Source: Escherichia coli
GTDB lineage: Bacteria; Pseudomonadota; Gammaproteobacteria; Enterobacterales; Enterobacteriaceae
DNA length: 64,000 nucleotides
Reading direction: 5' to 3' (one strand)
NCBI RefSeq assembly: GCF_022846255.1
Contig: NZ_AP025682.1
Shown here: in pieces, positions 10,428-28,469 of the stretch
How the letters are laid out: each line of letters opens with the position of its first letter
How positions within the stretch are numbered: position 1 is the stretch's first letter
The notes under the pieces: generated by a model
What the model saw: only the letters and a program-made list of their open reading frames with translations
The model's database searches: none
Told to the model about the DNA's origin: nothing
Made by a program: the position numbers and the translations under genes

Positions 10428-10498
10428 GCCGGGTAGGTCTGATAAGACTGTATCAGGCATCATGGCCGGATGCGGCGTTAACGCCTTATCCGGCCACT
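10428..10498. repeat. tandem REP units (BIME-like) between ypfH and ypfN
   Basis: gggtaggtctgataagactgtatcaggcatc followed by ggccggatgcggcgttaacgccttatccggcc. Confidence 0.75.
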
Positions 10499-25069: not shown

Positions 25070-27349
25070 ATGGATGACCAGTTAAAACAAAGTGCACTTG
25101 ATTTCCATGAATTTCCAGTTCCAGGGAAAATCCAGGTTTCTCCAACCAAGCCTCTGGCAACGCAGCGCGATCTGGCGCTGGCCTACTCACCAGGCGTTGC
25201 CGCACCTTGTCTTGAAATCGAAAAAGACCCGTTAAAAGCCTACAAATATACCGCGCGCGGTAACCTGGTAGCGGTGATCTCTAACGGTACGGCGGTGCTG
25301 GGGTTAGGCAACATTGGCGCGCTGGCAGGCAAACCGGTGATGGAAGGCAAGGGCGTTCTGTTTAAGAAATTCGCCGGGATTGATGTATTTGACATTGAAG
25401 TTGATGAACTCGACCCGGACAAATTTATTGAAGTCGTCGCTGCGCTCGAACCGACCTTCGGCGGCATCAACCTCGAAGACATTAAAGCGCCAGAATGTTT
25501 CTATATTGAACAGAAACTGCGCGAGCGGATGAATATTCCGGTATTCCACGACGATCAGCACGGCACGGCAATTATCAGCACTGCCGCCATCCTCAACGGC
25601 TTGCGCGTGGTGGAGAAAAACATCTCCGACGTGCGGATGGTGGTTTCTGGCGCGGGTGCCGCAGCAATTGCCTGTATGAACCTGCTGGTAGCGCTGGGTC
25701 TGCAAAAACATAACATCGTGGTTTGCGATTCAAAAGGCGTTATCTATCAGGGCCGTGAGCCAAACATGGCGGAAACCAAAGCCGCATACGCGGTGGTGGA
25801 TGACGGTAAACGTACCCTCGATGATGTGATTGAAGGCGCGGATATTTTCCTCGGCTGTTCCGGCCCGAAAGTGCTGACCCAGGAAATGGTGAAGAAAATG
25901 GCCCGTGCGCCAATGATCCTGGCGCTGGCGAATCCGGAACCGGAAATTCTGCCGCCGCTGGCGAAAGAAGTGCGTCCGGATGCCATCATCTGTACCGGCC
26001 GTTCCGACTACCCGAACCAGGTGAACAACGTTCTTTGCTTCCCGTTCATCTTCCGTGGCGCGCTGGACGTTGGCGCAACCGCCATCAACGAAGAGATGAA
26101 ACTGGCGGCGGTACGCGCAATTGCAGAACTGGCCCATGCGGAACAGAGTGAAGTGGTGGCTTCAGCGTATGGCGATCAGGATCTGAGCTTTGGTCCGGAA
26201 TACATCATTCCAAAACCGTTTGATCCGCGCTTGATCGTTAAGATCGCTCCTGCGGTCGCTAAAGCCGCGATGGAGTCGGGCGTGGCGACGCGTCCGATTG
26301 CTGATTTCGACGTCTACATCGACAAGCTGACGGAGTTCGTTTACAAAACCAACCTGTTTATGAAGCCGATTTTCTCCCAGGCTCGCAAAGCGCCGAAGCG
26401 CGTCGTTCTGCCGGAAGGGGAAGAGGCGCGCGTTCTGCATGCCACTCAGGAACTGGTAACGCTGGGGCTGGCGAAACCGATCCTTATCGGTCGTCCGAAT
26501 GTGATCGAAATGCGCATTCAGAAACTGGGCTTGCAGATCAAAGCGGGCGTTGATTTTGAGATCGTCAATAACGAATCCGATCCGCGCTTTAAAGAGTACT
26601 GGACCGAATACTTCCAGATCATGAAGCGTCGCGGTGTCACTCAGGAACAGGCGCAGCGTGCATTGATCAGTAACCCGACAGTGATTGGCGCGATCATGGT
26701 TCAGCGTGGCGAAGCCGATGCAATGATTTGCGGTACGGTGGGTGATTATCATGAACATTTTAGCGTGGTGAAAAATGTCTTTGGTTATCGCGATGGCGTT
26801 CACACCGCAGGTGCAATGAACGCGCTGCTGTTGCCGAGTGGTAACACCTTTATTGCCGATACCTACGTCAATGATGAGCCTGATGCAGAAGAGCTGGCGG
26901 AGATCACCTTGATGGCGGCAGAAACTGTTCGTCGTTTTGGTATTGAGCCGCGTGTGGCTCTGTTGTCGCACTCCAACTTTGGTTCTTCTGACTGCCCGTC
27001 GTCGAGCAAAATGCGTCAGGCGCTGGAACTGGTCAGGGAACGTGCACCAGAACTGATGATTGATGGTGAAATGCACGGCGATGCAGCGCTGGTGGAAGCG
27101 ATTCGCAACGACCGTATGCCGGACAGCCCTTTGAAAGGTTCCGCTAATATTCTGGTGATGCCGAACATGGAAGCTGCCCGCATTAGTTACAACTTACTGC
27201 GCGTTTCCAGCTCGGAAGGTGTGACTGTCGGTCCGGTGCTGATGGGCGTGGCGAAACCGGTTCACGTGTTAACGCCGATCGCATCTGTACGTCGTATCGT
27301 CAACATGGTGGCGCTGGCCGTGGTTGAAGCGCAAACCCAACCGCTGTAA
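25070..27349 (+). CDS. maeB: NADP-dependent malic enzyme MaeB with C-terminal phosphotransacetylase-like domain (759 aa)
   Basis: ORF track; malic enzyme N-terminal half plus Pta-like C-terminal half. Confidence 0.95.
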
Positions 27350-27393
27350 TTCTTTTTTAACTCTCACGCTTACCCTGAATATTCAGGGTAAGC

Positions 27394-27641
27394 GGTTTAG
27401 CTGCAATATATTAGTAAAGTTTATTACTGAGTTTGCGAATAATAAAAAAATCAGTATATAAAATATCTCGATATTATTTTATTTATATTCATGCGTTGCA
27501 TATGAAAGTTTATGCACCACATCAAATATCTCTCCATTCTTAGTGATCTACCTCACCTTTTAAACGCGCTTGCCGAATTTTGTTATTTACTCTGACGAAA
27601 AATTGTCACGATACACGAAAGTTTTTCACAGGCGGCGACTC
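27394..27641 (+). promoter_or_regulatory. AT-rich eut operon upstream region (expected main promoter and EutR target)
   Basis: About 250 bp strongly AT-rich between the maeB terminator palindrome and eutS; exact -35/-10 not assigned. Confidence 0.4.
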
Positions 27642-27977
27642 ATGGATAAAGAACGCATCATTCAGGAATTTGTGCCCGGTAAACAGGTCACACTGGCGCA
27701 TCTCATCGCGCATCCCGGCGAGGAACTGGCGAAGAAAATCGGCGTTCCGGATGCGGGCGCAATCGGCATTATGACGCTAACTCCCGGAGAAACGGCGATG
27801 ATCGCCGGTGATTTAGCGTTGAAAGCCGCCGATGTGCATATCGGTTTTCTCGACCGTTTTAGCGGCGCGCTGGTGATTTATGGCTCGGTGGGCGCAGTAG
27901 AAGAAGCGTTATCACAAACCGTCAGTGGTTTAGGACGCTTATTAAATTATACGCTTTGTGAAATGACCAAAAGTTAA
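27642..27977 (+). CDS. eutS: EutS bacterial microcompartment shell protein (111 aa)
   Basis: Start at [15 protein letters not shown] inside ORF-track ORF 27570..27977; first gene of eut operon. Confidence 0.9.
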
Positions 27978-27989
27978 TACGAGGCATTC

Positions 27990-28469
27990 ATGAAACGAAT
28001 TGCGTTTGTGGGTACCGTCGGGGCAGGAAAAACAACGTTATTTAATGCGTTGCAGGGGAATTATACCCTCGCAAGAAAAACACAGGCCGTGGAATTTAAT
28101 GATAATGGCGATATCGATACGCCGGGTGAATATTTTAGCCATCCCCGCTGGTATCACGCCTTAATTACCACGCTACAGGATGTGGACATGCTGATCTATG
28201 TCCACGGCGCGAATGACCCGGAAAGTCGGTTGCCTGCCGGGTTGCTGGATATTGGCGTCAGCAAACGGCAAATCGCCGTCATCAGTAAAACGGACATGCC
28301 AGATGCTGACGTCGCCGCAACGCGAAAGTTATTGCTTGAGACGGGCTTCGAAGAGCCGATTTTCGAGCTAAACAGCCACGACCCGCAAAGCGTGCAGCAA
28401 CTGGTGGATTATCTGGCATCTCTCACCAAACAGGAGGAAGCAGGTGAAAAAACTCATCACAGCGAATGA
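27990..28469 (+). CDS. eutP: EutP, EutP/PduV-family P-loop protein (159 aa)
   Basis: Walker A GTVGAGKTT; overlaps eutQ start. Confidence 0.9.
   Translation: MKRIAFVGTVGAGKTTLFNALQGNYTLARKTQAVEFNDNGDIDTPGEYFSHPRWYHALITTLQDVDMLIYVHGANDPESRLPAGLLDIGVSKRQIAVISKTDMPDADVAATRKLLLETGFEEPIFELNSHDPQSVQQLVDYLASLTKQEEAGEKTHHSE

Follow-up and report, generated by a model that had tools for sequence, protein, structure and literature searches.

The 292-bp intergenic region between maeB and eutS of E. coli is probably a three-part junction composed of a hairpin at the 3' end of maeB, an AT-rich spacer and the eut P1 promoter. In the window (the whole analyzed stretch of 64,000 nucleotides, to which all coordinates refer), maeB, encoding the NADP-dependent malic enzyme, ends at 27349 (25070-27349, + strand, stop codon TAA at 27347-27349), and eutS begins at 27642 (27642-27977, + strand); both genes were assigned from their ORFs and from the RefSeq annotation of matching genomes. 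The segment 27250-27750 shares 97-100% identity with E. coli chromosomes, in which RefSeq annotates maeB upstream and eutS downstream. The sequence-only reading had proposed a palindrome with a 12-bp stem after maeB, followed by ~250 bp of very AT-rich DNA containing the eut promoter and the EutR site. The palindrome is indeed present at 27367-27394 with fully complementary arms, and the eut promoter, mapped by homology with the Salmonella start, lies inside the 27350-27641 interval. The high AT content, however, holds for about 135 bp (24% GC at 27395-27527) and not for the last 114 bp (41% GC); similarly, the intergenic location of the promoter and EutR site was correct, but their placement in the AT-rich part was not, as the promoter occupies the last ~100 bp.

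Every element of the maeB-eutS gap belongs to a known kind, and eut P1 with EutR and CRP has already been described. Only three points are mildly new: the turnover of the Escherichia maeB terminator stem, a possible leak into eut and a concrete candidate for the EutR operator. A scan of 27000-28000 against Rfam (E <= 10) returned only sub-threshold chance matches, and the search for small ORFs in the spacer revealed only short, unconvincing ones. In one strain, E. coli 19AR0656 (L004 3100-3900), the sequence from the hairpin through the spacer, eut promoter and eutS to the 5' part of eutP is lost, with an IS1 element directly 3' of maeB in its place.

Three kinds of evidence define the promoter module as the invariant, not AT-rich last ~100 bp of the region (27540-27619): the start in Salmonella (23 nt before eutS), the K-12 CRP footprint and the rigid spacing of elements in 45 loci. 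The whole block, including the leader (27528-27641, + strand, 114 bp, 41% GC), shows variation in 0/114 columns among 11 E. coli strains and is alignable across Enterobacterales as far as Morganella. Alignment of the 150 nt upstream of eutS in 34 sequences, from Escherichia to Morganella, revealed three conserved boxes: Box 1 (AGTGATCTACCTCAC, 27542-27556), which is the conserved part of the CRP site; Box 2 (TTGCCGAATTTTGTTAT, 27570-27586, + strand); and a hexamer of the form nAnnAT, represented here by CACGAT (27607-27612, + strand). Box 2 differs by no more than one base across Enterobacterales genera, within TTGCCGAWWTTTGTTAT, and is unique in the window; in Iodobacter it is still recognizable upstream of eutS with three mismatches. 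In all 45 loci that possess Box 2, the core GTGA-N6-TCW precedes it by exactly 27 nt, and the hexamer is found exactly 37 nt past the Box 2 start in 44 of these 45, while the distance from hexamer to ATG, and hence the leader, varies from 21 to 39 nt. Such fixed spacing combined with a variable leader characterizes a rigid promoter module with a free leader downstream. Two direct copies of Box 2, TTGCCGATTTTTGATAT and TTGCCGATTTTTGTTAT, occur 100 bp apart in Entomohabitans teleogrylli (L047, positions 2337 and 2437), and this double box could help to define the EutR operator.

The transcription start was located by homology. In S. Typhimurium SL1344, dRNA-seq identified the primary start P1378, with a 23-nt 5' UTR before eutS and a 'Sigma 70 (-10)' sequence (PMC3293720 supplement); the number of reads behind this start is very small (3 and 1), and the conditions were non-inducing. 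Each base of the Salmonella promoter sequence CTTGCCGAATTTTGTTATTTACTCCGACAAAAAATTGCCACGATGACGGCA has its aligned counterpart in 27569-27619; the E. coli start is accordingly predicted at A27619, which would leave a 23-nt leader (27619-27641, + strand) carrying a Shine-Dalgarno-like AGGCGG at 27630-27635, and CACGAT is the counterpart of the Salmonella -10 sequence. Thus, a mapped start with a -10 hexamer upstream of eutS is provided by Salmonella together with the conserved sequence and spacing in E. coli. The CRP site ttAGTGAtctaccTCACCttt (27540-27560) has its center at 27549.5, about -69.5 from the predicted start and 1-2 bp away from the usual class I positions, and matches the CRP consensus at 12 of 16 positions by our own count. 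The identical sequence was detected upstream of eutS in K-12 by in vitro Footprint-seq, with a Kd of 9.0 nM (PMC12871828), and eutS is a genomic-SELEX target of CRP (PMC3105977); both data sets and the fixed spacing identify it as a cAMP-CRP site.

Reviews and primary papers place EutR, by EMSA and ChIP, on P1 directly upstream of eutS, where it activates transcription with ethanolamine and AdoCbl. From its depth of conservation and its position, we propose Box 2 as the candidate operator of this AraC-family regulator: it covers -49 to -33 and abuts the -35 region. The sequence at the -35 position, TATTTA (27584-27589, + strand), which was read from the sequence given the -10 hexamer and is separated from it by a 17-nt spacer, matches TTGACA at only 2 of 6 positions, and eut P1 has the appearance of a weak, activator-dependent sigma-70 promoter with a poor -35 element. 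No promoter was called by a consensus sigma-70 scan of the window and of K-12, as expected for a promoter that depends on activators. In the proposed mechanism, cAMP-CRP would bind at about -69.5, EutR with ethanolamine and AdoCbl would occupy the invariant 17-mer at -49 to -33 beside the poor -35, and RNA polymerase would use CACGAT as the -10 hexamer and start at 27619, producing the 23-nt leader.

A different arrangement of the promoter, with an extended -10 element TGtTATTTA (27581-27589) and a start at 27595, fits the eutS RNA used in a Salmonella CsrA EMSA, which begins at -47 from the ATG for a reason that is not stated (PMC10433801). This model was rejected: TATTTA degenerates to TATCCC or TATTCC in distant genera, while nAnnAT is kept in 44/45 loci, and a 23-nt leader follows from the dRNA-seq start. 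Of the eutS RNA tested with CsrA, about 24 nt are located upstream of that start and may be absent from the P1 transcript. The eutS leaders (27619-27646 in the window) also differ, with CACAGGCGG in E. coli versus GUGGAGACGG in Salmonella (L009/L010 2478-2505); of the two GGA motifs in the CsrA-binding Salmonella leader, one is missing from the E. coli leader, and the two species may not control eut through CsrA in the same way.

The -10 hexamer and the predicted start lie between the arms of an imperfect inverted repeat, GAAAAATTGTC / GAAAGTTTTTC (27596-27627). Its counterparts are AAAACTTG/CAAGTTTT in Klebsiella and AAAATTGCC/GGCAGTTTT in Citrobacter, with one double change from A-T to C-G. 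Since the 5' arm lies outside the P1 transcript, any role of the repeat would be confined to DNA or to read-through RNA. Its interpretation as an RNA or DNA structure was rejected as unconvincing, with 70% of cells paired versus 60% when slid by one column and few compensatory changes.

Upstream of the promoter block, the AT-rich spacer (27395-27527, ~133 bp) is specific to Escherichia and is the fastest-evolving segment of the region. GC content ranges from 0.23 to 0.31 across 27350-27550 and equals 0.24 for 27395-27527, against a genomic background of ~50%. In 11 E. coli strains, 16% of the AT-rich columns vary, compared with 0% in the promoter block and 3-7% in the coding DNA on either side; in a comparison of four other Escherichia species, the proportion is 76%, and the segment is largely unalignable or partly deleted, with about 56 bp missing in one of them (locus L008). 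The segment is present in a single copy, and its identity as a member of a repeat family was rejected for this reason. Most E. coli are merely 90-95% identical to this strain there, and about 100 of 5426 E. coli genomes have no full-length match to it. Among the spacers of other genera, no counterpart of 27395-27527 was found and no site within it is conserved across genera. We therefore read the AT-rich segment as a probably loosely constrained spacer without a promoter, found only in Escherichia, which would separate two transcription units as filler or as an insulator.

The low GC content raises another question: could the segment be a functional regulatory module, either a silencing patch for H-NS or other nucleoid proteins or a region of sigma-S-dependent or spurious promoters? 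We consider this unlikely, although several observations point in its direction. Apart from the base composition itself (24% GC against ~50%), E. coli strains show almost no variation in a sub-block at 27463-27490, which contains TCGATA, a sequence that we take to resemble an H-NS nucleation motif. Furthermore, a genomic-SELEX peak of the sigma-S RNA polymerase holoenzyme was assigned to the eutS-maeB spacer of K-12, at position 2574144 in older MG1655 coordinates (PMC5493296). Given this peak, the spacer may not be inert. However, no other segment is as polymorphic within E. coli, in other Escherichia species most of it fails to align or part of it is missing, the consensus promoter scan detected no promoter-like site in it in this strain or in K-12, and the other genera run the same eut promoter without any AT-rich segment. 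As to the position of the sigma-S peak, our conversion of the coordinates presumably places it near the maeB stop codon, the hairpin and the adjoining end of the AT-rich segment rather than at eut P1, with the coarse resolution of the array in mind. We thus retain the reading of a loosely constrained spacer.

The hairpin that precedes the spacer, cgcttaccctga-atat-tcagggtaagcg (27367-27394, + strand), starts 17 nt past the maeB stop codon in the sense orientation. A 12-bp stem (27367-27378 paired with 27383-27394) encloses the 4-nt loop AUAU (27379-27382), and because ATAT is self-complementary, the whole 28 bp form a perfect palindrome with 100% complementary arms (27367-27380 and 27381-27394). 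According to ViennaRNA energies, the hairpin alone has a dG of -20.4 kcal/mol; in its 81-nt context, the hairpin-only centroid reaches -22 kcal/mol and the full minimum-free-energy fold -22.8 kcal/mol (z = -3.7, with 0/200 shuffles equally stable). No other perfect long palindrome with a short loop exists in the 64-kb window, and by our own arithmetic about 0.02 perfect 12-bp stems with a short loop are expected per 64 kb by chance. The runner-up is a REP-like imperfect palindrome at 10463-10496, TGGCCGGATGCGGCGTTAAC / GTTAACGCCTTATCCGGCCA.

A stable stem-loop in the sense RNA soon after a stop codon is one hallmark of an intrinsic terminator, and the maeB hairpin shows it. The other hallmark, a run of ~5-8 U directly 3' of the stem, is missing: the tail is GTTTAGCT (also given as GUUUAGCU), in which GUUUAG at 27395-27400 supplies 3-4 U and the T-tract score is 1.56, so that the weak U tract noted by the sequence-only reading was borne out. 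A simple terminator scan called 0 terminators in the window, the palindrome included, and was likewise empty for K-12, which is expected of a U-poor hairpin.

Of 5426 complete E. coli genomes, 5409 contain the 45-nt hairpin region, in identical form in 2285 cases. Two places per genome were reported for it, which we read as both strands of one palindrome and hence as a single copy. REP/BIME elements exist as many copies sharing a consensus; the hairpin occupies one locus per genome, and a repeat-family identity was rejected on this ground. Among seven distinct Escherichia hairpin sequences, 97.6% of the stem cells are paired. In all four internal stem pairs that vary, the change is one-sided and produces a G.U pair on the maeB-sense + strand, while the loop, which is the center of the dyad, has acquired a 1-nt insertion in three Escherichia species; in the K-12-type hairpin, the terminal C-G pair alone is lost. 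With four substitutions and zero double compensatory changes, this pairing pattern is statistically weak and would be supportive rather than decisive.

What occupies this position in other genera? Sixty-three loci encoding EutS relatives were collected from species-representative genomes, and the maeB-eutS spacer was extracted wherever maeB lay upstream. In Klebsiella, Citrobacter, Pseudocitrobacter and Yokenella, the spacer is 153-160 bp long in most loci; longer spacers were found in K. pneumoniae (218 bp) and in two Citrobacter loci with inserts (284 and 370 bp). Most loci of these genera carry GGCGCGGG-loop-CCCGCGCC followed by TTTTTATTT, a canonical terminator with a GC stem and a U tract. 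Its GC-rich stem and T-run are offset from the maeB stop codon by 14-20 nt in most such loci and by about 19 nt in Salmonella. The flanks of the Escherichia hairpin are alignable with those of the other genera, through TTTAA upstream and, in E. whittamii, TTTTTAT downstream. In the two Citrobacter loci L028 and L018, inserts of ~125 bp and ~210 bp interrupt the T-tract region of the terminator, between CCCGCGCC TT... and ...TTTTTATTTC. The shorter insert presumably resembles an ERIC/IRU repeat, and by the same assumption ERIC-like inserts occur here in two Citrobacter genomes only. Insertions seem to favor the junction at the maeB terminator in several lineages.

The strength of these terminators was compared using a d-score of the d'Aubenton-Carafa type, with energies from ViennaRNA; the formula and its coefficients reportedly go back to d'Aubenton-Carafa in 1990. 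The score is +31 to +58 in 19 of 25 non-Escherichia loci. Lower values (+2.5 to -81) were obtained for the remaining six, which include Citrobacter L018 and L028, where the T-run is interrupted by an insertion; K. pneumoniae, with a different hairpin; and Yokenella and Salmonella L010, where the score refers to a longer stem that the stem-finder chose over the short terminator stem. The Escherichia hairpins score from -3.5 to -33 (-18 in this strain and -33 in K-12), and these negative values are entirely due to the short T tract, whose score of 1.56 here compares with 4.2-5.3 in intact canonical orthologous terminators. The hairpins of E. whittamii and E1V33 retain a AUUUUUAU tail and have a d-score of -3.5.

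Based on these comparisons of sequences, we read the palindrome as a likely 3'-end hairpin of maeB, a non-canonical terminator with a short U tract, and conclude that it appears to have taken the place of the ancestral terminator stem specifically in the Escherichia lineage, its U tract having decayed. In the suggested mechanism, the maeB transcript would fold into the 12-bp hairpin 17 nt past the stop codon, which would become the 3' end of the maeB mRNA. Termination at this hairpin would be intrinsic but non-canonical, owing to the short U tract, and is inferred to be leaky, possibly with Rho as a backup in the long untranslated spacer; in addition, the hairpin would block 3'-exonucleases. 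Two modes are conceivable: a leaky intrinsic terminator, or a barrier against exonucleases with Rho termination downstream.

The second of these options, taken strictly, means that the hairpin is not a terminator itself but only a stabilizer of the mRNA end, with Rho stopping maeB RNA farther down the 292-nt spacer and 3'-5' exonucleases trimming it back to the stem. A published model of this kind, in which Rho-dependent 3' ends are trimmed to stem-loops, is outlined in Dar & Sorek 2018. The weak U tract and the negative d-score of all Escherichia variants agree with it, as do the long untranslated spacer and its C>G skew at 27450-27600 (GC skew of -0.26 to -0.33). However, the hairpin is situated exactly at the position of the true intrinsic terminator of other genera, the AUUUUUAU tail in E. 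whittamii and E1V33 suggests descent from a functional terminator, and the first 100 nt 3' of the hairpin contain only about 10% C, making a poor rut region. The balance of this evidence leaves trimming from a Rho-dependent end with a rather low probability, and we keep a leaky, non-canonical intrinsic terminator as the preferred reading.

A broader scenario, which we regard as distinctly doubtful, connects the hairpin with the spacer. The Escherichia lineage would have swapped the canonical maeB terminator for a U-poor hairpin plus an AT-rich insert, and maeB transcription would either leak into eut or be stopped on the insert by Rho or nucleoid proteins. The outcome would be a lineage-specific, EutR-independent basal or sigma-S-linked input to eut, absent in Klebsiella, Citrobacter and Salmonella.

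It is highly improbable that a dimeric regulator, such as one of eut or maeB, uses the 28-bp palindrome as an operator in double-stranded DNA: the dyad symmetry is perfect across 28 bp, and the CTGAAT/ATTCAG half-sites presumably bear a loose likeness to LacI/GalR-type (Cra-like) half-sites, but they lack the central CG spacing of Cra-type sites, the one-sided changes in other Escherichia are G.U pairs in the maeB-sense RNA and mismatches in the DNA dyad, the central 1-bp insertion shifts the half-site spacing, so that neither dyad nor spacing is kept among relatives at the DNA level, an entirely different hairpin stands at the same position in other genera, and a site 3' of maeB and ~250 bp ahead of the eut start is poorly placed for either promoter. 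The sequence-only reading had left a terminator and a protein-binding palindrome side by side; the terminator is favored over the protein site because the position is that of the canonical maeB terminator of other genera and because RNA pairing is kept while DNA symmetry is broken.

The relevance of these results is limited, as they add little beyond annotation, apart from the lesson that the promoter lies outside the conspicuous AT-rich DNA. They nevertheless give E. coli nucleotide coordinates for eut P1, namely, for the CRP site, the candidate EutR box, the -10 hexamer, the start and the leader. With TTGCCGAWWTTTGTTAT, which keeps a rigid spacing to both CRP and the -10 hexamer in 45 loci, the EutR operator has a candidate that is open to direct testing. 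The Escherichia maeB terminator looks weak, and the resulting possibility of read-through from maeB to eut is relevant to work on the expression of the Eut microcompartment in E. coli.

Among known elements, REP/BIME and ERIC repeats resemble the hairpin in being palindromic, intergenic and located just 3' of a gene, but the hairpin is present in a single copy per genome and has no sequence similarity to them. The closer counterpart is the intrinsic maeB terminator of Klebsiella, Citrobacter and Salmonella, with which it shares position, orientation, a strong stem with a 4-nt loop and alignable flanks. The stems themselves are unrelated in sequence (12 bp with 50% GC in Escherichia versus 8-9 bp of almost entirely GC), and the Escherichia U tract (GUUUAG, 3-4 U) is reduced compared with the canonical one, which is why the hairpin fails both the classical score and the simple scan.

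The nearest relative of the promoter is eut P1 (PI) of Salmonella Typhimurium, which depends on EutR, ethanolamine and AdoCbl according to Roof & Roth 1992 as reported in PMC5821096. Box 2 and the -10 hexamer CACGAT are identical in the two species, and the spacer and the 23-nt leader length match. The leaders differ in that E. coli has AGGCGG where Salmonella has GGAGAC, and Salmonella differs further in an insert of 1.1-2.1 kb with an opposite-strand gene between maeB and the promoter. This insert (L010 391-2500 in subsp. diarizonae; SL1344_2434 in S. Typhimurium) contains a 413-aa opposite-strand ORF with a CxxxCxxC motif which, judged by eye, probably encodes a radical-SAM, anaerobic sulfatase-maturase-like protein. 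Among AraC-family systems, the araBAD, rhaBAD and melAB promoters have in common with eut P1 a poor -35 element, an activator box abutting the -35 region and an upstream CRP site at a fixed helical spacing. In eut P1, however, CRP is positioned much closer, at about -69.5, leaving room for one box of ~17-20 bp between CRP and RNA polymerase, whereas AraC and RhaS use two half-sites (-35 to -80).
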